A DNA stretch of 58,529 nt, the filler included, from Sphacelaria rigidula (taxonomy: Eukaryota), in the NCBI GenBank assembly GCA_964200075.2. It is 9 parts of 9 records of this genome, joined end to end, with 100 filler letters (N's around TTAATTAATTAA, not from the genome) between each part and the next. Parts side by side here need not be neighbours in the genome. Positions count along the whole stretch, not along the records: positions 52,116 to 58,529 come from CAXNAA020020216.1; 8 more parts are not named here. One strand, given 5' to 3'. The translations under genes were made by a program, and so were the position numbers. Shown here piece by piece: positions 5,715 through 58,529 of the stretch (positions within the stretch are counted from its first letter, which is position 1; every line of letters starts with the position of its first letter). The notes under the pieces are model-generated. The model had not been told where the DNA came from. It did no database searches and saw only the letters and a program-made list of their open reading frames with translations.

Positions 5715-5919
5715 CAAGGGCAGGTCAAGTAGAATATACTCAATTGCGGGGTATTTTGAAATACGTACTTGGGGTATTCAAGTTAGGGTAGAGTGTTGAG
5801 AGTCGTACCCAAAAAATGGCTGGGAAGCGATTCCTGAAACCCTACCCCCAATTTGTGTACTCCACGTACGACTTTCAAAATACCCCGCACTTGAGTATAC
5901 TCTACTCGACCTACCCTTG
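5715..5919. mobile_element. ~205-bp palindromic MITE/foldback element
   Basis: CAAGGGCAGGTCAAGTAGAATATACTCAATTGCGGGGTATTTTGAAATACGTAC at 5715 matches the reverse complement of 5866-5919 (CAAGGGTAGGTCGAGTAGAGTATACTCAAGTGCGGGGTATTTTGAAAGTCGTAC). Imperfect pairing continues inward to about 85 bp per arm. Confidence 0.8.
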
Positions 5920-7017: not shown

Positions 7018-10000
7018 TTACCCACCATCACGTATTCCTGAAACCTGAATCACCACTCCTTGACTTGTGGTACAAAACACATTGAGATCCACCACCTGAC
7101 CGGCGTCAACAGCCACCGGCTCGTCCAATAACACGGCCGCCTGCCGAAAATGAGGAAACCCTCCGCTTCTACACTGCAGTGTGTGATCACCCTCGTCACC
7201 GGCATGCCGAACCTCACCGCGTACAGGTCCCGTATCTAAAACACCAGCATCAACAGAGCTACTTGCGTCGCTCCTCTCCCCTAACCCCGTTGACCCCGCA
7301 ACCGCGTTGCTACGGGGCTCAAAAAGGCGTTGTCGGTACCAGTAGGCAATGGCGTGCAGAGTTCCACGTCGGGCTACGGGTAGGTGTGCCGACCTCCGCG
7401 GTGTGCATCCGTCTGCCCCGGCTTGCACATCGGACAGGTCGAGCTTGTAAGTCACGGCAGGCTTTGTGAGAAACACTTCCTCGTCTTCCTCCTGCTGTAC
7501 TCGCTCTCGTTTGTCTCTGTTGTGGTCTATGGCGTCAGAAGTACTACACGTTTCCACACTACTTTGTGTATTTTGTCGAGATGCGTTGTCGTTCCATTTA
7601 TTCCCGTGTATTGATGTATCTGCGGTGGGGTTTGCGTTGGGGTCAGCCCGAATTCCATCTGCAGTGGCGGCGGCGGCATTGGCCGCCCTAGACAGATCGA
7701 GCTCGCGGAAATTCGCCACACCAAACGCGTTCACGGGCGTAACATCAACACCGCAGCACCGGCAACAATCTCGCTGCTCGGAGGACGCCGATGAAGGAGA
7801 AGAAAGGACCCTGTTTTCCGAAAGCAACGATGCCCGCTGCAAACCCTGACAGACCACCTCCAGCGAACCCGGCACAAACGCAGCGCCAGGGCCGCCGCCC
7901 CCATCGCCATACCTGTTTTCCCCACAATTGTCGCTGGCGGCGCTGTCGCTGTCAACAGCACAGATAAATCTCCGGCACAACTCCAAGTCACCTAGCACCC
8001 CTTGCCGCAGTAACCCTGACCCCTCTACGACCCCCGATGCAATTACAACCGACCACTCACGCCCGTCATGCTCGGGAGATCCTCCGTCTTCTACCGTTGC
8101 GCGATTGTGTTTTTGACGGCTACGGCGCCGTCGACGCGGCCAGCACCTACAATCCCTCGGACTTCGCCCGCAGCACGCACCGAGGGCACCCGCCTTGACT
8201 TGAGACACAATACCACCAGCCAATGATGAACTGTTAGATACATCACGGCCAGTTGGGTTAGTGACGGGGGAGGCGGTAGTGTCGCCGCCGTGGTTAGGGT
8301 CTCCTTCACAGTCACCCCCCCCCGCAACCCAGGAAGCAAACTCGATCAACCCGACCGCGAAGGCCATGTAACGGTCCGACTCGAGCCCGTTCTCCCTCGC
8401 AAGCGCGTTCATCGCCTCGGCTATCTCCACTTCACCGTCCCCGCAAAGTGCCAGCACCTTCGTTGCCGGGCCGCCACCCTCCAGCTCCAACCGCGCCACG
8501 AACAAGCCAGCAAGACTCCACGCCCCGTATAGGTCCAGAACGTACGCGGGGGACGCGGACGGTGAGGAAAGCGCCCCTGCGGCGGGAACGCCGGCGGCCC
8601 CGGCGACGTTGGTCGAGGTGGCGGCTGCGAACGGTGATGGCTCACTGGTAAAGGTGGTGTCATCGAGAGGTGCAGCTACAGGATTATCGGCGGTGACCTG
8701 AGGTGGGGCTCCTCTCCTGTCGGTTAGAGGAGGAATCAGGGGGCCAGCTAGCGGCGCGAGGTGAGGGGTAGACTGCGACGGTTGCATCGCACAGGCGGTG
8801 CTTGCTTCGATGCGGTGGTTTATGGCGAGGATGTCTGCAACGGCCGTCGCGTAGGATTCGTGGAAGGTTTGGTCATTCAGACGGGCCAGGTCCATTTCTC
8901 CGAGGAAGAAGTGCTCGGCATGTCTTTCATCGTTGTCGGTGCGTGCTGCTTTGGGCGCACTTTCCCTCACAACCTGGCTTCCGCTTGTTGGGTTTTTGCG
9001 TCTGATTGGTTTTGCTGACTGCGTCGTACTGATTCCTTCGTTGCCATTTAAGGTCAGGTGAAGACAGTCGCGACCGGCCGATGCTTCCAGCGCAGCATCA
9101 CCTCCCACTTGTAACTCCACCCCAGACGCGAAATATACACCTGCATCCTACGACCACGTGAACGAGCAAAAAAGAGACAGCAGAGGGGATTTCGGTACGA
9201 GCAAATACCGTATCCGCACGTTTGTACGACAGGACGTCGCAAACGCTATTCCGCCTTTTCGAAGGCTAGACTGCAGAGGTCCACAGTTTCATAGGAAATA
9301 ATATTAACTCGGCGATAGAAGCACTTCGGCGGTTTGGGGTGCATAGTACATACCCAACTCAACTATCGTTCTCCCTTCTCGGCATGTCCCTCCTCGCCCT
9401 AGAACCAGAAGCATCCCCCAGTAAGAGCGGAATGAAAAACTCACCCAACCGGACGCATCCCCGGGTAAGCATCTCTCCGGCCGGGTGCTGACCACATCAT
9501 GTTCCCCCCGCTCCTCATCCAACCAAAGATCGAACCAAACGGCGATTGCATCCGCTCGCCCCGAGCGCTCCACGGATAGCGAGGACGAAGCCTGCTGTTG
9601 CTGCGTCGGCGCCGTCGGATGAGGGGGTGCCATGAGCACAGCTCCGATCTCGAGGAAATTTATGTCCAATACAGCGGTAGGGAAGGTGAGCTTTTTGTGC
9701 TCCAGGCGGGAGAGATCCTGCGGTGTTTGCGGTCACATGATGGGAGGCGGCAGGAGCGGGCATTTCGTGTTGCAGCGCGTTCGTACCGTGGCGAATAGAA
9801 AGACACTAGTGGTGTGTTTCACTTTGACTCAACGACGCATTTGCCCTCCCTGTCCCCTGCCCCCGCCAAAAATCGCATCATCACTTGACTGCACCAAAGA
9901 TTGATAAACTTTAGGGCAATGCAGACACTGCGTGGACGTGCATTGTGCGCTCAACATGACCACGGTGTCCACAAGCACAGAAACGAGAGTATGCGCTGAG

Positions 10001-11609
10001 TAGCGACGGTCTGTTCAGCACACCGCAAAGATCCTCAAAATCAAATAAAACAAAACGAAACTAAAAAAACAGCTCATAACACGGGGTTTGACATACTGTG
10101 GATGTGTTTTTTTTATTGAGGATGAGAACCCGGCGAATTAGAATCTTTGTATCCACACCAAATCTTCGAAATATAAGTCCACTCCTTCACCTACTGGTAG
10201 CTATTGACAACTACTGCATGCCATACAAATTTGGATCCTGATAACCGACATGTTTGGGTCCTAGGTGAAGAAACAATTTGGGGGAGAATTTAGATGATCC
10301 GATCAGATCGCCGAAATTCCCCCAAAATGGTTTTTTACCTAGGACCCCAACATTTCGTTCATCGGAATCCAAATTTGTATGGCGTGTAGTAATTGTCAAT
10401 AGCTACCAGCAAGTGAAGAAATGGAACCATATTTCGGAGATTTGGTGTGGATACGAAGATTTTAATTTTGTCCGGGTTTCTCATCCTCAATAAAAAATCC
10501 ATCCCGGATTTGTAAAATCCCGTGTTTCATCCCTACGTCCTTCACCTCGCAGGTGTAAGGTTCGTCGACGCTGAAGCCCACTGTCCTCGTGCGCAATCCG
10601 GCAGTGTTGTCGGGCTGTAGCCTGGATCGCTTTCTGATCGTCTCCGATTGCAACACTGCCGCGTAGACGCATGCCCCCTGACGGTGAGAGCAATCAATCG
10701 GTCGAGAGAGGGGCAACGTGGTGTTCGGCCCGGTGCGCAGAAAACCTCTCGGAGAGGACAACATCATTCGACGATTTCTTTTGGATGCTGCAAAAACACG
10801 CACGGAGATACGCTGAACGAAAACTGTTACGAAACAAAGAGCAATCAAGACTCCTTGTGTACAGAGGTAGATGACTGGCACTTAGTTTTCCTACTGAACG
10901 AAAAATTAACACCACGAAAATATGATCGGCGAGAGTCTCGGGGCCGAGAATTCCAGGTGGACGGCTGACGTCAATCAGCGGTGATCGGGGCGCAAAAAGC
11001 GATCGGAACTCGGAACACATGTGCTCAACTCATACACCAACCGTCCCCTCCCTGAGAGCTTGCCATGAACACCATGACCGTTTAACCAAAAACCTAGAGC
11101 AAAAACAACACGAAGTCACTCTACTCTCTAATGCCAACACGACTGTTATCAAAAAAGAAGAAAAAAAACAGCCGCACACAGATGCCGAAGACTAGGCGCT
11201 CTCTGAACGGAGGCGTTCTCAGCGAAAAGGGGACCATCTCGAGCTCTGCATGCCTCGGCAGTGACTTGATCATTATCCACGCGTTCCTTGACATCGGAAG
11301 ATGCATACGGGAGCGGGAGGCGCGAGGAAACGAAGAACGATTCGGGAAAAAAAGAAGAAGCTGAAACGTGAACATGATTTCTACGGTACCTGATGCCTGT
11401 ACGGTACCTGAGGTATCACACGTCCGCCTTCCGCCAGCAGACCGCGGGCACGGGCGTCGGCAAGGACGGGTATGATGCGCTCCCCAAGGAGGCCAGAATC
11501 GACCAACTCTGTTACTACGACGTCAACGCCGCGCGCCGGTAGATCTACTCCGGGTTTCAGGGACCCTGAAGACTTGTTGATAACGGTCACTCGGTCGGCG
11601 ACACCATTC
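7018..11609 (-). CDS. PRMT9: Protein arginine N-methyltransferase 9-like (PRMT7/9 double-domain family), 3' part. Exons 11609-11408, 10677-10546, 9717-9445, 9147-7018 (stop)
   Basis: Four GT-AG exons splice in phase to give VDVVVTELVDSGLLGERII...GRVIPQ/GACVYAAVLQSETIR...EPYTCE/DLSRL...DAIAVWFDLWLD...SGW/DAGVYF, then a degenerate second domain (LARLNDQTFH, GTLHAIAYWY, HFRQAAVL). EPYT.E and VVTE.VD.GL.GE resemble PRMT9. The 5' exons are not on the contig. Confidence 0.85.
10100..10504. mobile_element. ~400-bp foldback (long inverted repeat) element in a PRMT9 intron
   Basis: The left arm TTTTTTATTGAGGATGAGAACCCGG...GTATCCACACCAAATC...GGTAGCTATTGACAA...CCATACAAATTTGGAT...GGTCCTAGGT is complementary to the right arm over about 195 bp, centred near 10301. 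A related end occurs at 26060-26102. Confidence 0.9.
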
Positions 11610-14877: not shown

Positions 14878-15420
14878 GCTACTATAACACAACCCAAAGA
14901 CAGACATGAAATGAAAAGCTGACCATCATTCTTCTTCAACCGACCGTGGCACAGCCCGGAAAAAGACGTGATTGAAAAAAAGCCAACCATCCGTTATCTT
15001 TAACCTAACACAGCACAGCCCGGACATGGACATGGAATGAAGAACCTAACCATCCTCTATCTTTATCTACCGTGACACGGCCCGGATATAGACATGAAAT
15101 AAAAAAAGTTGGCCATCATTTTTCTTCAACCTACCATAACACAGCCCGGATATGGACACGAAATAAAAAAGCTAACCATCCTTTTTCTTCAACCTACCAT
15201 AGCACAGCCCGGACGAAGCCAAGAAATAAAAAAAGCCAACCATCCTTTTTCTTTGATCTACCATAACACAGCCCGGACAGAGACATGAAATACAGAAGCT
15301 GGCCATCCTTTTTCTTTCACCTACCAAAACTCAGCCCGGAAATAGACATGAACTGAAGAAGCTCACCGTCCTTTTTCTTTAACCTACGATGACACAACAC
15401 GGATATCGACGTGAAATAGC
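14878..15420. repeat. Tandem array of about 9 copies of a ~63-bp unit
   Basis: The unit, approximately AACCTACCATAACACAGCCCGGACATAGACATGAAATAAAAAAGCTAACCATCCTTTTTCTTC, recurs with ~63-bp periodicity. Confidence 0.92.
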
Positions 15421-26690: not shown

Positions 26691-29600
26691 CTCATTCGTC
26701 ATGTTGTCGCCGTCGACGAGAATTCTAATGGCCATGATGCGACTGGAAGTATCAGTGTAGCAGCCCTTGTAAGTAGATGTGGGTGGCGGTGTGTCGTCAC
26801 CGTAGTACACGCTCATGGCGCTGCGCCCACCGCAAATTTCACTGTCGTCGCCCGTGCACTCCATGTTGCAGTTGTCGGATGCACCGAGACGCTCAAAATC
26901 ATCGCCCTCGACACCGCAGAAGCACTCGCTAGCGTACTGGGTTCCGTAGAAGGGAGCGCTGCCGCAGAATTTTGCGCACTCCTGTATACGAAGTCAGCGA
27001 AGGAGAGCGAGGGTAAGCAGCAGGTAGCAGCAGGAGCTGGAGGGAGGCATCGCACAGGACTCGGCCATATCAAAAATACCCACTGTATCGGAATGATTGT
27101 AGCTGATACTGTATGATATATCCTTCGCGTATCGGAATGTTCCAGGAGGTCGTTATGAACTTCGCGCTTGAAGCTGAATTGAAGGAGCTGGAGCTGGAGT
27201 CACGTAGCTGGATCTAGGGTAGGTACGACCACGCGCCGGCCAAACATCATCAACTCGAGTCGACAACCAGCGTATTGATATCGGAAACGTTCGAGGGAAG
27301 AAACGCGTTCATGACAGAAAAACCCATCAACATGCGAGTTGTATCGCTTCTTGATAGTTCCTCTCGCGCTTCGGCAGAACCGTAAAAGTATTGTGAGTCT
27401 GCTACATCAGGGACGGGGGGGGTACTCATTTGTTACTTGCCTTAGTCGTTTGATCGTTGACCACGCATGCCTATCGAGACGGAGCCCACTCCTAATAGAG
27501 ACATCTCCAATATTTCGATGCTCATTACGTTTCTACTGTACACTACCCAGAAACACTCTACATATCTTATCCCCGTCCTGTTTCGCCGCCTGTGGCCACC
27601 GTATACCTTCTAGTGTAGCCATTGTTTTCTCGCTACTGTATTATGCACAAAACGATTTCATGCTTCCTTCGTTCACGTCCCGCATTTCCCACTCTCGCAC
27701 GTTCCGGTCTTCCTTTTATGTTTCACATTCTGCAACTATATGGGTTCTGCTCTACTGCTTTCCCACAGGGGCAATTCTATGCGTCTACTTTCTGCTTTCG
27801 ACAATTGGGGGGGGTCCACTCCACGAAAAAACAGCTCGTGGGTGTGTCAGACGACCCAACACACTAGCGGTGCGCTTGTATTTGTGTCAACAAAACTTGC
27901 CGAGCGGTGCGATTGGGCGTTATTTATGGGTAACATGCGCGTTCGAACGACCGTTGCTGCATTCAACGACGGTTTGAAGTGGAATTTCGCGGAAGAAATG
28001 GTCCGATTCCCCCCCCACCCCCCCCATCGTGGCACGTCTGCTTGCACCACACTAAGTGTTGCTGGTATGCCCTGTCGTGAGGGCATTGCCGTGCCCTACT
28101 CACCGCCGAGGTCATGTCGGGGTCATTCTTTTTCGATTGTCCTGTCAAAATGCGGTCCCTGCTGCTGTCTACGAAGCAGCCAGCATACCCCGACGGGGAG
28201 TCATCAGTGAACTCGTAGACACTGATGGCGTTGCGGCCGCCGCACGTCTCGCTTGCGTCACCAGAGCACTCCATGTTGCATGTAGCATCTCCGAGGCGAC
28301 TGGGATCATCCGATGAAGGCCCGCAGAAGCACTCTTTACCAAACTGAGTGCCGAAGTAAGTTGAGCCCGCGCAAAGCGAGGCGCAGGACTGGAAATAGTA
28401 GGACGCGAGGTAGGGGGGATTGGGCAACGACGGTCGGCAGATATTTCAACGAGAACGCGTGGCTGCTCCCTCTGAAGCACCTGTCTAGATATATCTGATG
28501 CCAAAATACAGAGAGTGGGTATGGTATCGTGGGAAAGATGTGTGTGTACGTCTATCAACAGCGAAAAGAAATGTCTCCACCGTGCCTTTCAACTTGTCGA
28601 CAGATCGAAGGTACGCACGACTTACAATATCTCATGCAACTTGAAGCGCATCATCAAAGGATTGACAGGCAACCGCGCACAGCGCCTCAGAATCGAACTG
28701 ATATGCATCGAAAAACACCGACGAACACAAGGGCAAGTCAACAACAATTCGATGCACTCACATCAATGGTCAAGGAACCCTGGTTTTTAAATGCATCTCC
28801 AGAGAGTACACGGTCCCTGGTGCTGTCGGCGAAGCAGCCCAGGAACGCGTAATCCTCGGGAGTAGTCGTGTCGGGAGTGGGTGCAGGGGTAGGAGCCGGA
28901 GTAGGCTTGTCGGAAGGGTCCCTCCAGTTGGAGATGGTTTCCTGAGGGAGATTGAGGCGAGGCACACGTCGACGATAAAACACAATGATACGTCCGTTGT
29001 GGTTGAGCTGTAGCAGTCTACTACCAGGACGTCGTCTCCACCCCTCACCCCGCAAGAAAGGTTTACGGTCGAGAGATGAATGTACCGGACCCTTTTCCCC
29101 TCAGCTATTGCTCGTGCGTGGTATGAGGTCATCTGGCAACCATTGTCGATGACCGATCCAGTCTTTGACATCTCGCGGTCAACAATCATCACAACAACTT
29201 AGTGAACAATACCACGAACCACGAACCACCAAATACCCCTTGATCAACCATTCATCGCACTTTTGACACAAAATTCTGACCATGGTCTCCCTGATGACCC
29301 TGGCGTTGTCCTCCGTCGAGGTTCCGGTGGGCTTCTCTAGGTAGTTGACGTCGGGATTGGAGAAGTAGTTGATGACAGGTGCCGCCCAGCAGCTGTTGGA
29401 GTAGCTCATGACTGTACGGAACAGCCTGACCAAGCATGGTACGCGTGAGCGAACGGAGACAAATCAGGAAACAGACATGTATAATGTTAATCGCATCCAA
29501 TAACATGTCGTGCACCATGTACAGTGCGATGTGTCGAGTCGTAAGCATCTGTATAAACCAGCATCGTATTTCTTGGGCAATGTAAGGCTATTCCTCCAGT

Positions 29601-32320: not shown

Positions 32321-32464
32321 TCGATCCTGCGGTTTTTTCAACTACGGCGCGGTCCTCTAAGCACGCGGTCCTCTCACGCATTACGGTGCTACATCGTAGT
32401 GTGATGCTTGAGAGGACCGCGTGCTTAGAGGACCGCGCCGTAGTTCGAAACACCTCAGGATCGA
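32321..32464. repeat. ~145-nt hairpin next to degenerate (TTAGGG)n repeats
   Basis: AACTACGGCGCGGTCCTCTAAGCACGCGGTCCTCTCA pairs perfectly with TGAGAGGACCGCGTGCTTAGAGGACCGCGCCGTAGTT. A partial arm copy lies at about 32178-32213 and telomere-like repeats at about 32238-32280. Confidence 0.9.
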
Positions 32465-33479
32465 CGTTTTAAANNNNNNNNNNNNNNNNNNNNNNNNNNN
32501 NNNNNNNNNNNNNNNNNTTAATTAATTAANNNNNNNNNNNNNNNNNNNNNNNNNNNNNNNNNNNNNNNNNNNNGGATGACAGCCTACAATGAGTTGCTTT
32601 ATTTTTTGGTATCGCCACTTCCCGAGACAGCCACAGGGGGGGGGGGGGGGCGTACTCATTTGTTGCTTGCCTTTGTCATTTGATCATGGACCACGAGTCC
32701 CTTTCGAGACGGAGCACTGTTCCCACTCCTAAAAGAGGCACCTCCAACATCTGGGCGCCAAATACGTTACTTCCAAACATGGCACAGAACATATTTTCAT
32801 ATCTCATCCTCTTCCTCCTTCACCGTCTGCAGAGGGTCGTAGTTCGGAATACAGCGCATTATGCTCTCATCCACAGGAGATGAGTGCTCGGATACAGGGC
32901 GGTCCTCCATATGTGCCGACTATGCTCATTGGGTCAACTTTGTAAATACAGATAGATAGCAACTTACAGGGGGACCTGGAAGTTTCGAATGCATAAAGTG
33001 TATAAAGCGTGACCAAAAAACGAAGACACTAAACTTTTCGCGAAAACATGTAATTATTTGTCAAATTTCATGCGTTATTCTGTTTTATATAATTTTCGTA
33101 AGGCCTTCGTGCCGGACCCCACTGTACGGAAGGGATGACAAACTGACGACGGAATCATATCATGGTTTCAAAGAGGTGAGCATACGCAATATATATATAT
33201 ATATATATCGGTATGTATTTTCACATTTGTGAAGTTGCAATGTGATTTCTACTTTTCACCGCCAATTGTCATCAGTGAAGTGAGTTCCGTGAGGAAATAA
33301 ATACTCACACCAGCAAGCTATGTAAGAGGAATATAGGTTTTGATACACGGTTATTTCGCAACCACTCTTGTACAACACAGGATAACTGCAAAGTGCACAT
33401 CAAAATTGCCGGTCAACGGTATAAGCAGACGGGGGAGTTCGTCTCCCTTAGTATCGCTATCAGCGCGGATGCGAAAGTA

Positions 33480-34396
33480 TCCATCGAAATCAACTGCCGG
33501 ATCAGCGCAGCGTGGGGCGCGTATCCGAAAATATAGCTCTCAACTCTACGATCGACCCAACGCTCAGTTATCCTTGAAAGTTCGGCTGCTTAAAGCTGAG
33601 GTGGTAGAAGCTCTGCTGCGCGGATGTGCCACATGAACGTCGTGTTCGAACCGACTATCCGCAAACGCCAACTCTAGTTCGCGGGAGCCCTTGTTCGGCC
33701 GAAGGAAGCTCGCCTTCCTAAACACGTCATGAACGGACGGTTAACCGCACGAGGGCCCAGGGAGGCTGGCCGTACCCCCAAAAGATGGCAGGAAAATCTC
33801 CAGGAGAACTTGCGTGCACTAGGGGCTGTTCCGCACAAAGGAGCACGACGGTAATGGTTCGTCTCCTTCCTCTTTGCTCTCCCTTTCCCGCACCCCTTTC
33901 TCTCTACATGTGTTCTGTCCTACCGGTGTATGGTGTATACCCGAGCAGCGTGGTACCTCCTTTCATTATGTTTTTTCCATGGATGAGAGGGTCCACACCC
34001 CAAATAGTGCGGTCGTAGTACATAACCCGCAATCTTTTCATTTTCCCACGGCCGTTTGTTTCGTACGACTGGGTATGAGTGTGCGGTTCTGCGTAGTAAG
34101 ATCTTTTCCGCCGGAACCGTGTGACAGAGGCCAGCCATTTTCTTTTCCTTTCTCTTGTTTTCTTTTTTTTGTGGCTTTGTTTTTGTTTTATTTTCTGTCC
34201 TAGTCTACCCTGTTGTTCTAGTCTACCCTGTTGTTCTAGTCTACTTTTTGTGTGTGTGTGTGTTTTTTTTTCCTTTAGCGAGTGTTTCAGTTTTCTTTTC
34301 TCTCGGCTACGTCTATCCTGTGATTATGACCACGATTGAATCATGACTCCTAGGGAATCAGTTGAAGTGCGACAATCAATCAAATGAATCAATCCA
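33480..34396 (+). mobile_element. RTE-type LINE 3' fragment with 3' UTR and (CAAT)n-like tail
   Basis: Frameshifted peptide INCRISAAW...SLKVRLLKAEVVEALLRGCAT...RLPKHVMNG...GRTPKRWQENLQENLRALG. It ends in TGCGACAATCAATCAAATGAATCAATC, and similar ends occur at about 1497-1523 and 44995-45023. Confidence 0.7.
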
Positions 34397-39276: not shown

Positions 39277-42200
39277 GCGGCAACTCGGTTCAACGTACCC
39301 TGTCAACAATCCAATGCGACTACGAGCAGATCGTCCACGCGTGGGCAGCGGACTACGGTAGAACCATCGCAGCCCCTCCACGCTCGGACGTGGCGCCTCG
39401 CATGGCGAATACCGAAGTGGGTGAAGCCGCCGGGCAGCGCCGTACCTCTTACCCCCTCCCCCTCGGCTGTCTCGGCTTGGAGCTCGGCCGTCCTCCGGTC
39501 CTTGTCAGTGCAATCGATACCCGGGGGCCCGGTGGTGGGCCCGTCGTACGCGTCGGCAACGATCGGTATTCGGCGAGTGACACTCGCGCTGTTGACAGAC
39601 GGCTCTCCATCGGCGGCCTCTCCGAACGGCTTGGGGGGTTCTCTGCAGGCGGAAGAGATCGTTCGCGTGATCGTTGACGACATAAACACATTCGCCGAAA
39701 CCGGGCCGAGCAGCACCGACGACGGTAGAGCAGTTCTTGACCCGGCGGTGGCTGTGAGGGGAAGCGCCGAGGTAGCCGTCGAAGTGCAAGACTTCTCGAA
39801 CTTCCTCCGTCTCCCGCTCGTGTCGCACGCGCTCGTGACGTGGAACGTCGCAATGTGCGGCGGCGGCGGCGGCGGAGGTCGTGGCGTCCATGGCGGCGCT
39901 GGAGTGGAGGAGGTGCTATTGTCAACCTTTAGGCCCGTCACATCCGCGGCTGTGGAAATGCAAGATGCGGTTATCAGCGTGTCTGCGACGGCGATGCAGT
40001 GTGTCGACCGCTGTCTAGGTGAGCTGTCGCTCAAGCCCCCCATCGGCGATGACGGGCTTTCTTCAACCGTTAGTGCATCTGCGAACCACGAGTCAAAAGG
40101 CGACGGGTCTCTTCCCTCGGCGGTGTCATCGCTCCCACCACTACAACGACAACGGAGAAAGGGCTACATTGTGACAAATAGTACGGACAGGTCCTTGTGG
40201 TTTGGGCAAGTGTCCACCACAGAGACTGTAGTCCTTAGCCCCGGTGTCAGCACTTCGTATCGGTGGAGAACGATCCCAGCTCCGGTTGCGGCTACCGCTG
40301 GAGGCAACGAGACGGCAGAGGCTTCCCGGCTGGAACTCATGCTCCGCCTCGCGCTGCATCGCGATGGTCGCAGAGGAGGCGGCGCTGGCGCCATGACCGG
40401 GAGCTTCGGGGCTTGGACAGAACCGTTTCCAGCAGATCGTCCTGGCACGTACATGGTGGGTAATCTCATTTTTGTCGACCTACTGGAAAGCCTTTTCGTT
40501 GCCGCTCCGGATGACAAACGCATCGCCCCTGCCGGAAGATGTGTTGCTCATCACGCATGCGAGTGTCGAACAAGGCGGTGAACAGCGGATTCCGCCCGAT
40601 ACGACTGAAAAATTGTCGATGCACACTTGTTGCTTGGCAGTTGAGTAGTATGCAGTGAAGAATATTGATTCCCTAATCCACCGTGTCAATCCTGTTTCCG
40701 TGTGGGGTCTATACATCCTTATCGCAGCGCCTGTTGCGAAATGCAGGAGCAGAGGGGTCACAAGCTGCCGCTGAACACGCTGGTACTGGGGGTGATGCGA
40801 TGGCGGTCCCCTTGTGGGTAATGGTCTCCAAGGAAGGCTTACAAACACGGATAGAACTGCGCGGGGAATGGGTATTCACCAATCATCTTCCGCAGGAGGT
40901 TCAGGTGAGACTCCAAGCCAGGCCATGAGCTCAGCAGGAATACATTTACCGCAATCACCATGGCGGAATATGCACAGTATGTCGGGGCGTCTGGTGGTCG
41001 TATTGCAAGAATAGGCATGCTCCTGAACCGCTCACACCATTTGAACACGAAACGTTTTGTCCCTCGACTGTAGTACTCACATCGTTAGCGCCCCGACCCT
41101 ACGGATCGACCCATGAAGATATTTCCAACGTTGGATCTTGGTGGAGCCAACTCAGTGCTGTTGCACCCGAGGTCAACTGCGTCGCCTTGCAATTTTCCCC
41201 GACGTTTTACTCAATAATCAAAACAAGGTGACGTGGGCGACGGTAGAGGGGGGAGGCAGAAGCAACGACCGGACGCTAGTCGAGCCGCCGGGGACCCGCG
41301 GCGACCTCATTCTCGCTGCGTGCAGCATAGACCAAGCTTCTGCCCTCGAGGCCACCGGTTCCGATCCGGTTCAAGACGAGTGCGTACCTCGCCCTGAGTC
41401 TCTTTCCGCTCTCACTAGTTGCGCGCCTGTTGCGATTCCGGGCGCGTCGGAGGAATGGCGTGGGAGACTGTCAGAGCTTAGGCTAGAATTTCGTCTGGCG
41501 GGGACGGACGGCAGCGCGGTTGTGGGATCTGTGGGTCCGCCGCCGATAACAGCAATAAGTGCAGCCCTTTGCCGTTTGCCAGTCGCACAGGCGGGTGGCG
41601 ATGGTCGGGACGGGAATAGGGCAGGTGGTGGGGAGGGGCGTGGTGGTGATACTCCGGGCGGAGGAGAGGAGGACGGAGTGGAGATGTCGTGGGCTGCGAC
41701 ACGGCAGTCAGATTGGGTTGAGGCACGACCGGGGATATATTTGTCGCTCATATCTTGCGCCAGCCCTAATCTGATGAGCTCTGGGATTTGGTTTTGGTGC
41801 GTCGCGTCGAGGCAGGCTACGCCCCTCCGCGACTGTGCTGATTGCGTCTCTGCCGTGGGCGAACACCGTTGCCATCTGGGGCAGATGACCATTGACCTTC
41901 GCCCGATGGCCATGCTTCGGAACCGCTGCTCGCTGCCGCTAAGGGTCATGATGGAGAGCGCAGAACGTGAATACGGTGACGCCAGTCGCGCGCAAGTCGA
42001 ACATCCGCAGCCTTTGATTACAGGCAAAATTGAAGATGATACTAGGGCGACGCATTCGGTCAGTAGCCTATATTCGTTCTGCCGTGTGGGGTTAGGTTTG
42101 ACCCTTGCGCCAGGCAGGCGAACGGCCGTTTGCCAGCAGCCCTTCGTGGACTATCGACTAACCTTCGCAGGGACTAGAGCGCAGGTAGGCGCCGCCGCCC

Positions 42201-44700
42201 CTCCAGATTCAGGAGGTAAGGACTCTTCTCGGCCTTTCGTGATTTCCGTTCCGTCGGAGCTTTTTTACCGGAGCTGTGAGGCGCGATGGCTTCCACTCCA
42301 CGAGCGGGCGCTGAGGGAGAACGTCTTGAGCCCTCTGGTGGTCGTCGCATCGCGACCGTTCGACTCCCACTGGCCGTCGCTCACCCTCCACGTTTACCCA
42401 GGACTTAGCATCAAGAACAACTTGCCCATGCCGCTGTCAGTTTTCTCGGCCTTCCACCACCCAGTGGATACGGAAACGGAAGTGCCAGGCGCTGGTAGTA
42501 CAACTGAAGGCCTGTGCGATGCCCAGCACGACAGAAGACCGTCAAATGGCCGAGTGACAACAGCAGCAACGGCCGAGGGTCAGGACGATGATCCCGACAT
42601 TCCATTGCTCCGCCGCAGCGCTGCGGACAGGGAGAAGCGACCGTCTTCGGCCGACGGCCGCCGGGGAAGCCGCGATGGCCGCCGCAGCGACAGTTGTGTC
42701 AGTGAGACCCCTTCGTCCAAGCGCTTTTGTCGGATATTCCACGCGCCGGCAGAGAGTCTTCACAGTGCTTGGGATATTCACGACATCTCAGGAGACCCTG
42801 TTCCGTGCGTTCTCCCCGCCGTACACTTCGAGTTCAGCTTGTGCACGGCGGACGCGAAGAGCGCGGCGTCTCCTGCCGTGAACGAGCCCAAAACTGCCGC
42901 CACGCATGACCCTTCAGGGCAGAGGCAAAGATCACCTCGAGTGGTTGTTAACCTGGACAGCGACGTGGACTCGTTGAACAAACTCGTCCTCGTGCCATGG
43001 ACACAGGCGCCGCCAGGTAGCAATGACGGCGGGGACGATGGCAGTGGCCAGCCCCAAGCTCTCTCTCTTGACGAGAATGTGGTCCTTCCGGTCATCGTAA
43101 CGCTCGGGAAAGAAACAGTTGCCGGTGGAGTGGACCTACTTCGGCTGGAGATCCATCCGCGGGTGGTTGTGCACAATGCCACCAATCTTCCGGTTTCCCT
43201 CTCCTTGGTTGGCGCACACTCCGACTCTTGTCCTTTGTGGCGCACTCAGCTCTCCGCTGATGGACACGGGAGTAGCATGGCCGTGCCGGCGCTACCTGGA
43301 AAGCGAGGATACTACCCTCGTAAGGCAGATGTCATGGACAACCCTAGCTCCTCCAGAAGAGATACCGACGACGCTTTCGGTGCGGCAAGAGATGTGGGCG
43401 CTGACGACGCTTCTGCGCGTAACGCTGCGAGGTCGGGCGGTCGACTGCGATTCGGCCTTTCCTGGCTCATGAAAAGCGCGTACAAGGCAGCGCCCGCGAA
43501 GCCCACAGGCTTCTGGGCAGATCTTGGGGTGGCATTTGGGAGAGAAGATACGGATGACGAAGCAGCGGGTAGCGGCGATAAGCGGTCGATTGTATCGTTG
43601 GCTGAGCTAGAGAGCGGCGCTCCGCTTCACTGCGAACCTCCGTCGATCACCGTAGCGGCGGACGAGGGGCGGCGTGCGGCGCGCGTTTGCGTTGCCGTTG
43701 GGATAGATCCTCGCGATCACGATTCATCGAAGATGCCGTCCTCAGCGCCCTCTCGCCATGTGGTCTTGTTTCAGGACCCCCAGCCGGTCCTTACGGTGTG
43801 CAACAGGGCTGCGGGCCCCGTGACAATCATGTTTGATTGCGGTGCCACGGTGGAAGTGTGCCCGGGCAAAACGGCAGAGCACTCATGGTCTGAGCTCACT
43901 AGTGGGCGGGATCGCAAGAGCAGTGGCGGAGTCGGCGGAGGTGGCATAGCCGCCGCCACAGCGAGCGCCGCTGGTTTCGCGGCACAGCCGTCGCCCCGGC
44001 GGCCACCTGCGTCCCCGCTCCTTCAAGGACGTGGTCGGATATTTTCAGAGACCCACTCCCATCATGAGAGCGAGTCGTCTTTCCTAGTGTCGCCGACATC
44101 TTCCACTCCGCCATCGCCGTGCTCAAGTAATCAACGGAGAGGAAGTGGCGGGAGGCGGCCAAGCGCCGGTGGTGGCTCCGCTGCCACTAGCAGTAGTGCC
44201 GGAGGCAGCGGCAAGAAGCGCACTGCCGGGAAAATTTTCGGCGGCAGCGGGAACCCGGCCAGCTTACAACACTGGTTTCGATGCAAAGGGGCAAGCGAAG
44301 ACGACGAGTCGGTGTCGTGGTCAAACCCGCTATGGGTTGCACGCGGCGTACAGGTAATCCGGTTCGACAGGCGAGGTGGCGGCGGAGGGTGGCATTTCAG
44401 AGAGAGCTACGGCGGCGGCAGCGGCGGCGGCGGAGGGGCTGACTCCGTCAGGCGGGAGGTGCCTGATTGGGATGGCTTCGGCAGTACCGTTGACAATGGA
44501 TTGTTTGGAGCCGGACCCGACGCGCGAGAGGTGCAGGTGCACGTGATGGAGCGTGCGGGTGGGTTTATCATGTCCTTCGCAGAGGGTGGGTTCGAAGGTA
44601 TTGAATCATGCGTGGCGGCGGTGGCAACGGCTGCAGCGGCGGCGGCCGACGGCGGAGCTAGCGAGGGAGCGAAGAGCAGGGCAATCGCAGAAACAAGGAG
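39277..44700 (+). CDS. VPS13B: VPS13B-like lipid-transfer protein, internal part (VAB/SHR-BD repeat region). Exons 39277-40455, 40728-40904, 41228-44700
   Basis: YIVTNSTDRSLWFGQVSTTETVVL...YRW...WTEPFPADRPGTYM/RLL...RIELRGEWVFTNHLPQEVQV resembles VPS13B (LRFGQVDTDENILL...WSEPFSVDHAGTFIR). Recurrent P....N..P..L motifs (PMAMLRNRCSLPL, PGLSIKNNLPMPL, PRVVVHNATNLPV) and FQDPQP are present. Splice sites are in phase. Confidence 0.82.
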
Positions 44701-45446
44701 GTATTTTTGCTGTTGTGAACTGCCACGCGACTTGTTTTTCAGAGCGCAGATTGTTTTACAGAATAGGATTTATTCAGGGCTTTACGTGAAAGCGCTGATT
44801 GAGATCAAAAGGTGAAGACATGAGTGTGAGGAAGGCGCAGGATGGGCAAGATGACAGGGCTCGTGCCGTGATTGGGTATTTGTGTGCCTCCGTGGAAAAG
44901 GGGCTGAGACATTTACGTAGAACGGCGGTTACCAGTATTCCGTGCTCAGGCCGCAGGCCGTCGTGAGGCGTCAGCTGAATCAGCCGGCCGCACAATGTGC
45001 GACAACCAATCGAATCAATCAAATGACGGGGTCGTGCTCTACGATAGACGATAGACCTCACCATCAAGTTTACTGTAGGGCGGGCGGGAGGGCAATTCAC
45101 TCGCTGCAGGGTTTGCGTTGATCCACAGCGTTGATGCAGCGTCCGAACGTCGTTCATCGAACTGTTTGCCAAAACCAACCATCTGCCTGGTATGAGAATC
45201 CTCTTCGGCTGACTTGCGGCAAAAACTGTGTCATGTGAAATCAATCACACTGCGAACACTTGTCATTCTTTGCTGGCCCCACTTTCGCACCTAACAAAAT
45301 TATCGACATCACTCTATACGTGACACCGATGGCAAAACCCCTAGAACACGAGGATATTCTCGCCCTGTCTGTCTTGGACCGAGCAGGGATAAATTCCACG
45401 CTGCTGCGAAAATCACCCACGCTCTGTTTTTTTTAAATAATACCCC

Positions 45447-45601: not shown

Positions 45602-46330
45602 CATACCACGGTATGGGATACCCCGGTAAATACCGGGGGTACGCTCGGCACGGTACGTTACCTACGGTGCCTGTGAAAACTTCGACTACCCAACTTGTAA
45701 CCAGATCTGAAACGCTTCGCACTGCCAAATGGCAGTTTTGAATCCGGTGTAGAGGGTAAGGCAGGTACCCGGTACCGGTATTCGGGACATCTCATACCCT
45801 ACCGATACCGACCCAGTCCGGTATTTTCGAAACTCATATCTACGACACCTGCGATACCACGGTATTTCGAGATTTTGAGATTTCAATACCTACCGTACCT
45901 GCCAAATCCGGTATTTTCGAATGTCATACCTACGATACCGACGATATCTCTGAGACTCCAATACGTACCGCACCCGCACAATATCCGGTATTTTCAAATG
46001 TCATCCCTACGATACCTACGATACCAGGATATTTCGAGATCCCAATACCTACCGTACCCGCCCAATCGGGTATTTTCAAATGTCACACCTACGATACCTA
46101 CGATACCACGGTATTTCGAGATACCAATACCTACCGTACCCGCCCAATCCGGTATTTTCGAAACTCATACCTACGGTACCTACGATACCACGGTATTTCG
46201 AGGTTTCGATACCTACCATACCCGCCCAATCCGGTATTTTCAACACGCATACCTACGCATACCACGGTATGGGATACCCCGGTAAATACCGGGGGTACCC
46301 TCGGTACGGTTCGTTACCTACGGTGCGTGT
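45602..46330 (+). mobile_element. Helentron/HINE (DINE-1)-like non-autonomous element with internal ~77-bp tandem repeats; 3' end of one copy (45602-45675) directly followed by a full copy (~45679-46330)
   Basis: The internal unit ATACCTACCGTACCCGCCCAATCCGGTATTTTCGAAACTCATACCTACGATACCTACGATACCACGGTATTTCGAG is repeated about 6 times. There is a 3' hairpin CCCCGGTAAATACCGGGG and a subterminal inverted similarity (GGGACATCTCATACC vs GGTATGGGATACCCC). The same element occurs at 55662-58410. The superfamily call is an inference. Confidence 0.7.
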
Positions 46331-46484
46331 GGATTCTTTGTGTCAAATTGTTGTTCTCCGTGCGACACTAATTATAATTTTGAGTTGAACCCTTCTAGGA
46401 ACACAAATGCGATGGACGTATAAGATCAGCGAAAAAAAATCGACTGGCTATTTTTTTCGATAAAAAAGGTGCCAAGACACGCCC

Positions 46485-49424: not shown

Positions 49425-49630
49425 GGGCCCTACACGTTATCACACGTAGCACGTGTCACGTCATAAGTTAAGATGGGCCAGTAATACGGTGCGGGACCAC
49501 ACTGGGAGCCCTGATTTGACTTGACTTTTGAACGGGGTTACCCACGTGGTACCTATCCCCCACCGTGGTACCAGCCTGGCTTAACTTTTGACGTGAAACG
49601 TGAAAAGTGGACGTGTAGCGTGTAGGGCCC
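49425..49630. mobile_element. ~206-bp MITE, PIF/Harbinger (Tourist)-like
   Basis: Imperfect TIRs GGGCCCTACACG(T/C)TA...CACGT(G/T)TCACGTCA(T/A)AAGTTAAG at both ends. TAA is present on the right flank only. Confidence 0.7.
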
Positions 49631-53217: not shown

Positions 53218-55915
53218 TATGCACAGTACTTTATTTTAAATTGTATACCTGTACTGACCGTAGAAAGCTCTTGTCCGGGGTGTATTGTAATACATTTCCA
53301 CATATATTAGGCGGTGAGATCGTTTAATACTCCAGAGCACAGGGCCGAAGTGGAAGTGAGGCAATCACCGAAATATTCACGTGCAAAGCGTGTGCGGAGA
53401 AAATCTAAGTTGATAAGGCTAGAAGAATACCAGTACAACGCCCACTCTGGCTGTCAACCTGTTTGTACGGCCGTCCTGGTATTGGTGGGACTGTCTGCAC
53501 CGGGATGTTTCCCCCGGTGCCAGGTACGCCGGCACGGGCCCGTCGCGCAACCCACTGGTCTCGCGACAGAAGCTTAACCTTCAGCTGTCGACCGTTTTGG
53601 AGCGGAAACGTTCACCTCCCAACCCTCATATATACAGCGGACCATAGACGATGTTTCTTTGCTGGGTTTCTTCGAGCGTTCATCCATGACTGGGCGATAT
53701 TGATGGTGAGGCCAGCAGGATCCGTTGCAGTCAGCGTGCTCAACTGTCAACTGTACCCACCATGATCGTCATCAGACAACAGTGTGGTGAAGAACAAAGT
53801 CCGACGCGCCATGGATATCCGCACTTTTGATGCAGACCGGGCCATCAGCGACTTCCCCTGCTGCAGCGGTGACTGTGACGCCTTCCTCTGATGATAATCT
53901 ACACATTTTCCAAGTTTCCGCGTCATCTGACGCGAGGTGCGGATTCTCTCCACGGCTAAGCTGCCAAGATACCGCCACCATATTATGGAGAAGAAATAAT
54001 ACTGTAGTTCATAAAAAAAAAGGAGATGACTCTGCACGTACTAAAAGGGCGGTCTCCACATCACTCCATTGATGCGCCTCGAGTCTACCTTTGAAGGTTC
54101 GTGGCGGGCATTCGGGAGTATAATTTGTATGTGTTCCTGAGATACTTTTGAAGTGGCCTGTAGTCGAACGCGGAATGATATCCTCTGTACTAGGCGTTGA
54201 AACACACTAAAACAAATGATTTTTTCGACTTTCCCCACTCATGAACAGGCTGGGCCAGCCCAGAAGAAGCGGATTTGTAGTTTCAGGGTGAATTCGCAAT
54301 TTTGACTAGGAGTCGGACAGTGGGTTTTGGTATAGACAATCAACAGGGCATGAAGAAAAGCTGTATGTGGGATCCCGATTTTTCTTTATTTCTATTCCAT
54401 GAGTTTAGGGCATTTTGCGGAGGTCTCAAAACTGATCATTGCCCTCAACTCATCATGAAAAAATACGAAAAACCTTCGGGACCCCACAGACGGCTTTTCG
54501 TCGTGCCCTGTTGATTGTCCATTCCAAATTCCATTGTCCAACTCTTAACCCGTGGACCCCGAGGGCAGTCCATCTGGATTATGCATCCTTTTTTTCAAGT
54601 GAATTTGCTGCCCATTTAACAGATGAACTACTCTCGCTGTCCAAGGGTTGAGTAAAAAATTGCGAATTCGCCTTTTAAAAACCGGGCAGGCGCTAATTCG
54701 GAACAGTATTTTGCAGGCCGTTTCTCGGCCCACGGATGATTTTTGTGTATTGAAACGTTGTGCAGGAGCTCGCTAGGTCATAATGAACCAAGGAAAATGG
54801 ATCAGATTGGTCTTGATTTATGTTTTTTCGCTGGTTTAGGGCATTTAGTATCGTAACGACCATTTGTTTTACGAGAACACCCGAACCTCTGCCCCCCATG
54901 AAATGATGAAGGTGTATATATTTTTTTATTCAGCATACCTCTGTCGTTCTCCATGCTAAGTTTCAAATCAAAATCTCAAAAATTGAGCTTCAAAATTCAG
55001 AGAAGGTCCGAGAGCAATGATCGTTTCTCCTCAAAACTCCCCTAAAAACACGAAAAAAATGAAAAAAAAACGAAAAGAGGAGTAAAAAGCTGTGTTACTC
55101 AAGTTTCATAATGCACTAGCGTTTCTTCATACCAATCTTCACAGCACAACTCTCAAAAGCTGAGACGCGATATCCAGATTTAGAGCATCCAGTGCCTCTG
55201 CTCGTAATGTACTGATTTTAATATGGAAACTTATGTGCGCCAAATCTCGAGATAGATTACGAATTACGTGAAGTTGGGGGGTATCTATCGTCTCCCCGTG
55301 CTTCAGGGAAGGTCCACACCAAAAATTGCAATCATCCGCTGAATGTATCGTTTGGGGTCTCATATAGATTTTAGTGTGGACGCTATTGCCGTACGGTATA
55401 GGAATTACTAGACATGGGGTTTATTTAACGACAAAATATTGGCCCAGATTTTTGAGCAGATGGGCACCTACCTTCCCCTTGATCAGACGATTAATACGAC
55501 ATGCAGATCATGGGCCAACTCGTCTATGTCGATGAGATATTGCTTTTAGAGCTTAAATCCGTTTTTAGGCTGGTCCAGCTCGCAAAACGAAATGGAAAAA
55601 AATGTTTCGTGCAAGTTTCGTTTCGTGATTTGGCTTCAGCTGAACGATCTGCCCAGATTACCACAGGCACCGTAGGTAAGGTACCGTACCGAGCGTACCC
55701 CCGGTATTTACCGGAGTATCCTATACCGTGGTATGCGAAGGTATCGTAGGTATGAGTTTTGAGAATACCGGATTGGGCCGGTACGGTAGGTATCGATATT
55801 TCGAAATATCCTGGCATCGTAGGTATCGTAGGTACGTATTTTGAAAATACCGGAATGGGCGGGTACGGTAGGTACTGAACTCTCGAAATACCCTGGTATA
55901 GTAGGTGCCGTAGGT

Positions 55916-57738
55916 ATTATTATTATTATGATGATTTCCGCACATGAGTCCGATCCGCAAATATGTTGAAGAGCTCGGGGGAAAGTACACAACCTTGGCG
56001 GAGGCCCTGGTTTACGTGAAACCACTCAGATGTCTCGCCGCTATCCAGGCAAACGCATACCCGCGTACCGTCATGGAATTGGCGGATTATGGAAATTATC
56101 TTGGCGGGTATACCGTAGCGTGTTAGAACATTCCAGAGAAGAGAGCGGTCCACTGAGTCGTACGCTATTTGGAGATCGATTAAGCACATGTACAGAGGAA
56201 GATTCTTCTCTTGGGCTAGTTCTTGGAGTCTGCGTACAACGAACGTCATGTCGACTGTCGAACGGCCAGGTCGGAAACCGCATTGCGCTTCTGGGAGAGA
56301 TCACTTCCACTCGCAGTAGGCGCTGAGGCGAGTCGCAACTATCTTGAGCACCACCTTGCCCGCGTGGGACCCGAGAAAAATCCCAGCATCCTTCACCCGC
56401 CCAAACTCTTTGTCCGTCACCTTCAGCGCCTTCTTCAGGACAATGTCTTGGGGTTTGCTCGTTGTTTTTTCCATACACTTTCCCTGAGATCCCATGCCTT
56501 TTGGAGGCAATCCTGAGCTTGAGATGACTCACTAAAACCGCCAGATGGGGTTTTCTTGGGGCATCGAGGGAGTGTATCCGCGGCCGTCTGTCGCAGGCCG
56601 TTAGCGAAGGTGGATGCCATGTCGTTGACGTCCATTACTGTGGGGGAATCAGTGGCATTCGGGAGCTTATCGACAATGGCCTGTGAAACAGTAGCTCCCC
56701 AGCTTCGGTCGGATGCGAGGGCTTTGCGGTCGAAACGCACTCCCCTATCCCCGCCTCTCGGTTGCGGTTAGTGGTCGGGGGCGTTCCGTCTAAGGAGACG
56801 GATGGCGACAGAGATCAGACGACGGTCCGATTTCATCTCGGTGTGCACCGTGACATTTCCGACGAGTCTTCGGTCTTGCTGACATACGAGGATGTAGTCC
56901 AGGCGCCAGTGGTGTTCGACCTTCGGCCCCGCATATGTGTACGCGGTCGAGCTTTCCCCGCGAGTTGGTGTGCGAAAAAATGTGTTGGTGATGGCCATTT
57001 TCTTTTCCGCCGCGCATTTCAGGAGGCGTCTACCATTATCGTTCCGGGTGTCTCTGCCATACTCTCCCAATAACCGAGCGTCACCAATGCCTCCTACTCC
57101 CCTCTTTCCGGTACGAGCATTGGCATCCATCATTAGTACTAGGTGCTCGTTGGTGGGCACTTCAGTGATGGAACTGCAGAGAATTTTCCAGAACGTGGTC
57201 TTATCCGAACCTTGTGCTGTCTCAGTGGGAGCATACCCTACAATGAAGGTTGTGGCAACTCTATGCCAGAAAGCTACTCGTACCTTCAGGATCCTGGCAC
57301 TCACGTGTTCGGGAGTGATGGCGTCTGGATCCAGTGTGCTGGTATAGACTGCCTGATGGGAAGGCCGACTCCGAGCATTCCCGGTTTTCCCCGTCCATGG
57401 TAGTAGCCGCTGCAGTGAACTATGTAGCGTGCTGCCGGTACGTGGAAGCGTGTTCGTCCGTCGCGACGGGCTTCTTGGAGGGCGACGAAATCACAGCTGT
57501 ACTTGGGCGCAAAAAGCGTCAGGTCCTCTGCGTGGCCTGTGCCGTTGCAACCTCTCTCGGCCATGGTGCGTACATCCCACGTGATCACCACCCACTCTTT
57601 GGATCGAGCTTCCACCCTTGCGGCAGTACGATTGGCGTGAGCCTGAGCTTTGGCTGTTCGCCGAGCTGGTCTTTCCCTCCTCCTCTCCCTTCGTTTTCCT
57701 CTGCCTCTTCCTTTCTGGTGTCTGATCCAGCGTTTGTG
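55916..57738 (-). mobile_element. RTE-clade LINE, internally deleted, with (TAA)n tail
   Basis: APE motifs ITWDVRT, DFVALQEAR, VGYAPT, MDANARTG, NDNGRRLL, ITNTFF, RLDYIL, KSD and RT motifs GKVVLKI, EAQCGFRPGRSTVDM, IDLQIAYDSVDR, GLRQGCVLSPELFNIF, with stops and frameshifts. Confidence 0.92.
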
Positions 57739-57815
57739 TGGTATGACATTTCGAAATACCGTATTTGGCAAGTACAGTAGGCGAGGAAATTTCGAAATAC
57801 CGTGGTATCGTAGGT

Positions 57816-58227
57816 TTTGTTTTTGTTGTCCCCAGAGGACAGGAAGGAACCTTGAACCATGCACTTCGCTCTTTCTAGTTTCGTGCAGCGCTTCGAGTTG
57901 CTCCACCCGTCAGACATGCCCACCCGAGGGTAGACATGTCCGACGAATGGATGGATAGGCACCAAGGTGGGAGTGCCCCCCCCCCCACCCAGGTAGTGTC
58001 GGACTTGGGAAGTAATACAAAAATGTCCCTCACCGACCAAACCTTCTACAATGTCCCCTGGCTTGACTCTGTACACGAGTCACCCTGCCAATCCGGGCGT
58101 CGGTCCTCAAGAAACAGCACCAGGGCTTCCCACGTGGTCCCCAACCGAAGTACTAGCCTGGCCCGACGCCGCTTGACTTCACAGAGCGGACGGGATGTGG
58201 TACCATCGACGTGATATGGCCGTTCCT
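57816..58227 (-). mobile_element. 5S rRNA-derived SINE (SINE3), 412 bp, with 14-bp TSD
   Basis: A full-length 5S head is followed by a ~280-bp unrelated body and a CAACAAAAACAAA tail. The TSD is GTGGTATCGTAGGT (57802-57815) and GTGGTGTCGTAGGT (58228-58241). Confidence 0.85.
58109..58227 (-). pseudogene. 5S rRNA-derived sequence (SINE head; probably not a functional 5S gene)
   Basis: AGGAACGGCCATATCACGTCGATGGTACCACATCCCGTCCGCTCTGTGAAGTCAAGCGGCGTCGGGCCAGGCTAGTACTTCGGTTGGGGACCACGTGGGAAGCCCTGGTGCTGTTTCTT is 119 nt with eukaryotic 5S hallmarks (GGCCATA, ATCCCGTC, GAAGT.AAGC, AGTACT...GACC, GGGAA) and pairing ends. No oligo-T terminator follows it. Confidence 0.9.
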
Positions 58228-58529
58228 GTGGTGTCGTAGGTATCGTCGGTATGACACTTCAAAATACCGGATTGGGTCGGCATCGGTAGGGTATGGGATG
58301 TCCCAAACACCGGTACCGGGTACCCGCCTTACCCTCTATGTAAAATTCAAAATTGTCATCTGGCAACGTGATGCGTGTCAGATCTGGGTGCAAGTTGAGC
58401 AGTAGAAAGTCGCCCCCCACCCGAACTCAATGGTCAAACGACTAAGGCAAGCAACAAAAGAGTACGCCCACCACCGGCCCCCTCACCCGGGCCGCCGCAC
58501 ATCCCCCCGCACCCCCCCCGCCCACCCAC

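Follow-up and report, generated by a model that had tools for sequence, protein, structure and literature searches.

At 57802-58241 of the window (the whole 58,529-nt stretch of the Sphacelaria rigidula assembly analysed here), an inserted element is headed by a 5S rRNA-like sequence, which raises the question of whether it belongs to an undescribed 5S-headed SINE (SINE3) family, as originally predicted, or whether the 5S sequence and what follows it were joined in some other way. The insertion lies on the minus strand, and runs from the 5S head through a 293-nt body to a CA-rich tail ending at 57816. Its parts and immediate surroundings are as follows:

55661..58410, no strand assigned: host dispersed repeat with 82-bp internal units, interrupted by the 5S-headed insertion and a LINE relic
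55918..57739, minus strand: broken EN-RT LINE relic, one unit from the insertion and in the same host repeat
57802..57815, no strand assigned: target-site duplication (TSD) copy on the element's 3' side, 14 bp, 1 mismatch
57816..57829, minus strand: CA/A-rich 3' tail, with a small terminal hairpin just before it
57830..58108, minus strand: body, a full-length non-autonomous retroposon copy with its own 5' end at ~58109
57902..57951, minus strand: 23-bp hairpin in the body, the whole of which folds with z = -3.9
58019..58023, minus strand: internal T5 run, element nt 205-209, 86 nt into the body
58061..58106, minus strand: start of the body, common to organism C, with heterogeneous flanks upstream
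58109..58227, minus strand: full-length 5S rRNA copy (Rfam RF00001), stopping at the expected mature 3' end
58131..58178, minus strand: putative type-1 Pol III internal control region (box A, IE, box C), with limits that we take from the Xenopus numbering
58228..58241, no strand assigned: TSD copy on the element's 5' side, 14 bp, 1 mismatch

The boundaries of the insertion are well defined. When anchored, the repeat reaches its greatest length at exactly the ends given above, and 14 bp with at most one mismatch occurred in 7 of 20,000 random position pairs (pairs touching N left out). The flanks plus one TSD copy align over 170 of 170 nt to a sister host repeat at 45930-45753, with 81% identity, a gap-free junction, and a single 8-nt gap in the left flank. 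The TSD is single and encloses both the 5S and the body, with no inner duplication seen between them. Hallmarks of TPRT are therefore present in the 14-bp TSD, the CA-rich simple-repeat tail and the clean empty site, and the 5S head, body and tail are one genuine retrotransposition event. In these respects the original prediction has held: a full 5S head begins at the first base inside the TSD, the direct repeat has the length and single mismatch described, removal of the element and one repeat copy restores a normal host unit, and the TSD and empty site bear out a single retrotransposition. The “tandem array” to which that unit had been assigned is, however, the internal 82-bp repeat of a dispersed element, ~0.5-0.65 kb in size, with a sister copy at 45681-46332.

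Evidence on copy structure comes from the assembled contigs of four of 22 public runs (X1, X3, X7 and X15) aligned to 57690-58340, and draws on 40 of 64 differences, 15 of 45 joints, 24 of 637 loose-end entries, and 32 of 7,047 pieces. Both outer junctions are found in these contigs, in X7 record 32 (58181-58340, 0 differences), X1 record 1 (57711-57929, 0 differences), and X7 record 25 (57690-57852, 4 differences), though either of X1 and X7 may have a link to the source of the window itself, and so they do not count as independent for these junctions. As the outer junctions match without differences, X1 and X7 stem from the same organism or one very close to it. The junction between 5S and body is present in the window and is bridged, with at least 31 nt on both sides of the border, by 0 of the 32 listed pieces of 7,047; this absence is weak, as junction contigs would be short and fall outside those 32.

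The host repeat also carries the LINE relic, which ends inside its RT domain, ~40 nt before a (TAA)n-like end. Its homologues include an Ectocarpus protein at 46% (one of 30 matches is so named, most being unnamed), which supports the predicted brown-algal origin of the DNA, while leaving the species itself unproven. Pfam gave no family for the relic's ORF, although the homologue search did find relatives, and the LINE protein query had no match in viral contigs. Comparison of the relic with the body revealed no 3' similarity, and thus no partnership is indicated; likewise, no partner LINE 3' end in the window matched the body above shuffled controls. The 3' ends of the relic and of the 5S-headed insertion abut the same short motif in neighbouring host-repeat units, hinting at a target preference. 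A second EN-RT LINE, a broken C-terminal fragment on the plus strand (33393-33833), is without a recognisable body-like tail.

Elsewhere in the window, self-BLAST located self-inverted foldback repeats at 10078-10526, 5715-5919, 54307-54547 and 32321-32464, which are likely MITE-like elements, and a 63-bp tandem array of ~8.6 copies occupies 14879-15418. Exons of host genes lie at 7018-9147 (minus strand; a PRMT C-terminal-like region below the Pfam cut-off), 27963-28445 (minus strand; a WSC domain) and 41117-44815 (plus strand; a 1,232-aa open frame with no Pfam match). An Atlas search of a host protein returned “eukaryotic PRMT” alone.

The identity of the head is clear, with RF00001 matching over model positions 1-120 of 120 (90.4 bits, E 3.7e-18), the sole match in the window at the gathering score. 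Compared with the majority 5S of the same species, the 119-nt head shows at least two fixed changes (5S nt 80 and 85), both within the box C part as delimited above; further differences may lie beyond the 40 of 64 listed. Among those listed, fixed differences number 2 in 119 nt for the head and 7 in 293 nt for the body (Fisher p = 1), and because these rates are alike, the head was ordinary 5S when captured. It is near-native 5S, without subfamily-specific or extra divergence; heads of fungal SINE3 elements, by comparison, are reported to be 50-65% like their 5S (PMC5063351). Residual depth in X3 is 2,288 and 3,840 at the two head sites, as against 39-560 for the sites in the body. The letters of the head may thus recur in other sequences, variant 5S copies and other letters being the simpler cause.

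It was also necessary to consider whether the body is the normal downstream spacer of the 5S rDNA, the case that the original prediction had named as its own refutation. Among the loose ends listed, 26 contigs in X3 and 45 in X7 carry 5S of the same species and depart at 58109 into different, T-rich sequence; therefore the body is not 5S spacer, and a 5S rDNA repeat unit (gene plus spacer) was rejected.

Other arrangements of 5S sequence were seen in the same material. Head-to-tail 5S-to-5S joints, each in a single contig of X3 and X7, connect 58228 to 58109, 58221 to 58108, and 58220 to 58157, and several diverged full-length 5S copies have unique flanks (X3 records 22-24, X7 record 31). Dispersal or retrocopying of 5S seems frequent in these genomes. 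Within the window, a foldback, MITE-like element of ~206 bp at 49425-49630 has a 15-nt outer inverted repeat (93%) and 54-nt inner arms (76%). Both arms can be aligned with the 3' half of 5S, where its promoter lies, scoring 43 and 46 (500 shuffles of each gave no more than 33), and they are the best window tiles after the 5S itself; Rfam gave no 5S match on this foldback. It is probably multi-copy, since 49580-like sequence follows the 5S in seven X7 contigs that diverge from it at 58159, and going by its sequence it is possibly a DNA-type repeat with two facing TFIIIA-site-like motifs.

The body is a dispersed, multi-copy family in its own right. The majority letter at 57871 is carried by 87 contigs in X3 and 82 in X7, and records containing the body run into different 3' flanks (X3 17, X7 27, X7 28, X1 2). 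Summed contig depth over the body in X3 and X7 is 27,000-234,000, compared with 20-47 for single listed contigs, which suggests hundreds of body copies or more, depth not being the same as copy number. Among the loose ends listed, 37 X3 contigs quit the reference at 58109 into unrelated flanks (agreement 0.34), and two long contigs follow the same course: X3 record 20 (1,242 nt) aligns over 57981-58109 before ~1.1 kb of other DNA, and X7 record 30 (2,850 nt) over 57956-58114 before ~2.7 kb. The body family thus has its own 5' end at the 5S/body junction. In X1, depth falls from ~9,700 to ~30 across the junction, a drop that was not used as evidence, as X1 is also without the 5' half of the window copy and nearly all native 5S.

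The family extends beyond one species. Organism C (X15) shares the first ~45 nt of the body and continues 3' in diverged form, with eight contigs departing at 58106 into heterogeneous flanks (agreement 0.48, loose ends listed), and different sequence lies downstream of the 5S copies listed for it. The window body itself bears at least seven near-private substitutions relative to the family majority among the differences listed (57819 and 57854, where the family is mixed, being excluded). At these seven sites the window letter accounts for at most 0.07-0.46% of contig depth in X3 and X7, hence no large sibling group shares the seven changes.

Broader searches for copies in sequence collections returned nothing beyond chance. 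Exact-pattern scans gave 0 and 19 loci in metagenome contigs, 0, 0, 12 and 0 in viral contigs, and 0 in genome contigs, with no true copy; all 31 of the 31 loci fetched match the 16-24-nt seed alone, as expected by chance. Against phages, blastn returned seven chance records at E 1-3. In the rest of the window, no stretch of the body matched above shuffled controls save a G-run region (40 versus 29-33 in five shuffles).

The start of the body, conserved between two species, is sharply bounded on its 5' side, with no promoter or ribozyme match. Rfam searches of this region at E up to 10 gave unrelated weak matches alone, with no tRNA among them, and relaxed ARAGORN placed nothing at the body's head. 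There is an A-box-like match with two mismatches, with no B box at a fitting distance, and the first 90 nt adopt a loose cloverleaf-like fold; some resemblance to long-arm tRNAs may exist. No HDV-like or hammerhead ribozyme was matched by Rfam in the body, and a simple, unbenchmarked descriptor found no ribozyme starting within its first 12 nt and no hammerhead core. Origins of the body start from tRNA, SRP or a ribozyme thus have no support from these searches. Depth over 58061-58108 is greater than over the rest of the body in X1 and X3, and other families may share this start, as the Ectocarpus families unknown4-N1 and unknown6-N1 share left ends.

Whether the 5S promoter could drive the whole element depends on the T5 run in the body, which with the family majority letter becomes T5-G-T4 and is, judged by its sequence, a probable Pol III terminator. 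The original prediction held that the 5S head lacks a T-run terminator; directly after the 5S there is indeed none, but the T5 follows further on, at 58023-58019. For comparison, the commonest 5S downstream flank in X3 and X7, together with the end of the gene, gives T5. According to Kojima (2015), a SINE with an oligo-T stretch inside it cannot be a Pol III transcript (PMC4494074). The body family has been amplified despite this run, so either it is not made by Pol III or the run leaks. Since the T-run should end Pol III transcripts before the tail, the window element is probably a dead end.

Taken together, these data are probably best explained by a chimeric retrocopy, in which a non-autonomous, LINE-dependent retroposon gained mature 5S rRNA at its front through template switching or ligation. 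One TSD surrounds two parts, each of which also occurs on its own as an RNA or a family, and a near-identical 5S is joined directly, in the same orientation, to the 5' end of the body family. In the proposed mechanism, a LINE reverse transcriptase, probably of RTE type, would prime at a nick in the host repeat and copy an abundant non-autonomous retroposon RNA of ~290 nt over its full length, starting at the CA-rich tail and finishing at the 5' end. The enzyme would then carry on into mature 5S rRNA at its 3' end, either by switching template or because the two RNAs had already been ligated, and proceed to 5S nucleotide 1, after which repair would leave the 14-bp duplication flanking the whole chimera. 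The copy would since have decayed neutrally by about 2%, and it carries a 5S internal promoter. We infer the switch or ligation, the RTE partner and the absence of daughters from this arrangement; template switch and prior ligation both yield same-orientation chimeras with one TSD (PMC13174262), and by description the CA-rich tail would fit RTE-1 and RTE-2 of Ectocarpus, LINEs with (CAA)n ends and non-autonomous dependants (PMC12477816, supplement 1). Independent template-switch chimeras are, in addition, predicted to leave many headless copies sharing the 3' part (Kojima 2015; PMC4494074). A multi-copy body under a chimeric head is a third case missed by the original prediction, which had set a SINE against a 5S spacer or single-copy body.

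Some observations sit less easily with a chimeric retrocopy. Depth is greater at the sites in the head than at those in the body, so that further copies could carry the same head letters; the body family was amplified in spite of its T-run; and the 5S part of human 5S/L1 chimeras is typically antisense and truncated (PMC13174262), whereas here it is sense and full-length. The head-site depth, which lies above the level of a single copy, could instead reflect a young, low-copy SINE3 subfamily, in which an earlier chimera became a master and the window copy is one of its daughters, with the 5S promoter transcribing through a leaky T-run, the body's tail mobilising the transcript, and headless parents remaining far commoner. 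We regard this as unlikely. Such a subfamily would have a complete head in sense orientation that abuts the TSD and in which box A, IE and box C can be recognised, as is the case here, and a template switch that gives a non-autonomous LINE derivative a small-RNA head is a proposed route of SINE birth (PMC5786205). A subfamily with a native head and majority body would escape the 32 of 7,047 pieces and 40 of 64 differences listed, and its junction contigs could sit outside those pieces, so that the 0 of 32 bridging the junction is weak evidence against it. Against it also stand body copies that start at the junction without 5S in two species, a head without subfamily-specific divergence, and the internal T5, and the SINE3-family reading of the element is weak. 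The original proposal that head and body form a unit driven by a type-1 promoter is likewise not supported, given a body that is multi-copy alone, a near-native head and the T5.

A read-through retrocopy, where the body had inserted behind a working 5S gene, replacing its terminator, and the Pol III transcript was then retrotransposed once or a few times, would likewise account for the exact start of the 5S, its orientation in sense and the single TSD around the whole. It is nonetheless very improbable, as no terminator or spacer bases lie between the 5S end and the body's usual start, and the transcript would have to pass the T5. Two successive insertions of a 5S pseudogene and the body at one spot, or a mis-assembly of the inner junction, would account for the absence of that junction from the listed contigs, and precedents exist in the dispersed, diverged 5S copies with unique flanks described above and in the host repeat having received another insertion one unit away. 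This is also very improbable, given the single TSD enclosing both parts, a 5S without a tail of its own, outer junctions present in public contigs, an exact empty site, and similar decay in head and body. The preferred reading remains a chimeric retrocopy: the insertion is real, adds a new case to a type of event already known, and is probably not a new SINE family.

As a single chimera this is a modest result, one that extends small-RNA/retroposon fusion to brown algae. On that reading it shows the initial step proposed for the origin of 5S-headed SINEs, and both of its parents can be recognised. Its body indicates a non-autonomous retroposon family, shared between species, that has a sharp 5' end and no promoter match; Ectocarpus has several unexplained families of this kind. 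There is a small chance that a 5S-headed SINE has been caught at birth, with a fusion of 5S and headless retroposon having become the master of a small subfamily. Were the fusion to have daughters, it would be a first stramenopile SINE3 with both parents still in the genome. It would then put the template-switch model of SINE birth to a direct test, and offer a natural one of whether Pol III reads through a terminator inside the element.

Among known systems, the element resembles SINE3 in its 5S head, unrelated body, LINE-type tail and TSD. SINE3 members include zebrafish SINE3 and lepidopteran HaSE3, which has an RTE-derived 3' end (PMC5786205, PMC10886601), and AfuSINE3/SINE3-1_AO of Aspergillus (PMC5063351); with reports from vertebrates, insects and Aspergillus, the original description of 5S-derived SINEs as mainly animal was overstated. 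In Lepidoptera, HaSE3 and HaSE1 have a common 3' part under different heads. The window element departs from SINE3 in a body seen to start at the junction without the 5S, a near-native head and the internal T5, and its probable terminator would, on sequence grounds, place it outside SINE3.

A parallel for the body is found in the Ectocarpus non-autonomous, LINE-dependent families RTE-N1, RTEX-N1/N2, unknown4-N1 (432 bp) and unknown6-N1 (321 bp) (PMC12477816, supplement 1), which, as described there, are short and non-coding, with a simple-repeat tail and a 5' head of obscure origin. The left ends shared by unknown4-N1 and unknown6-N1 recall the body's start, shared across species. Unlike the window element, no family in that supplement is annotated with 5S, the comparison with the body being by description only, and its TE table has 0 matches for “5S r”, “rRNA” or “tRNA”; the accompanying text mentions possible SINEs with unknown heads, none with 5S (PMC12477816). 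The main text of a preprint on brown-algal genomes has 0 occurrences of “SINE” or “5S rRNA”, and the published literature, as searched here, yielded no brown-algal SINE3 or 5S chimera.

The nearest counterparts of the whole element are the small-RNA chimeric retrocopies of mammals, namely U6/L1, U3/L1, 5S/L1 and snRNA/Alu (PMC13174262, PMC4494074), together with the WEIRD-MGL chimeras of Magnaporthe (PMC2104539). As in small-RNA/LINE-SINE chimeras, an abundant small RNA lies 5' and a retroposon 3', with one TSD around both, and the 3' partner is far commoner alone. The full-length sense head is like that of U6/L1, and as human 5S/L1 chimeras typically have the truncated, antisense form noted above, the window's head is closer to U6/L1. 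It differs from human 5S/L1 in its driving LINE, which the RTE-like tail suggests was not L1, and from mammalian chimeras in general in its brown-algal host and in a 3' partner that is a full-length non-autonomous element.
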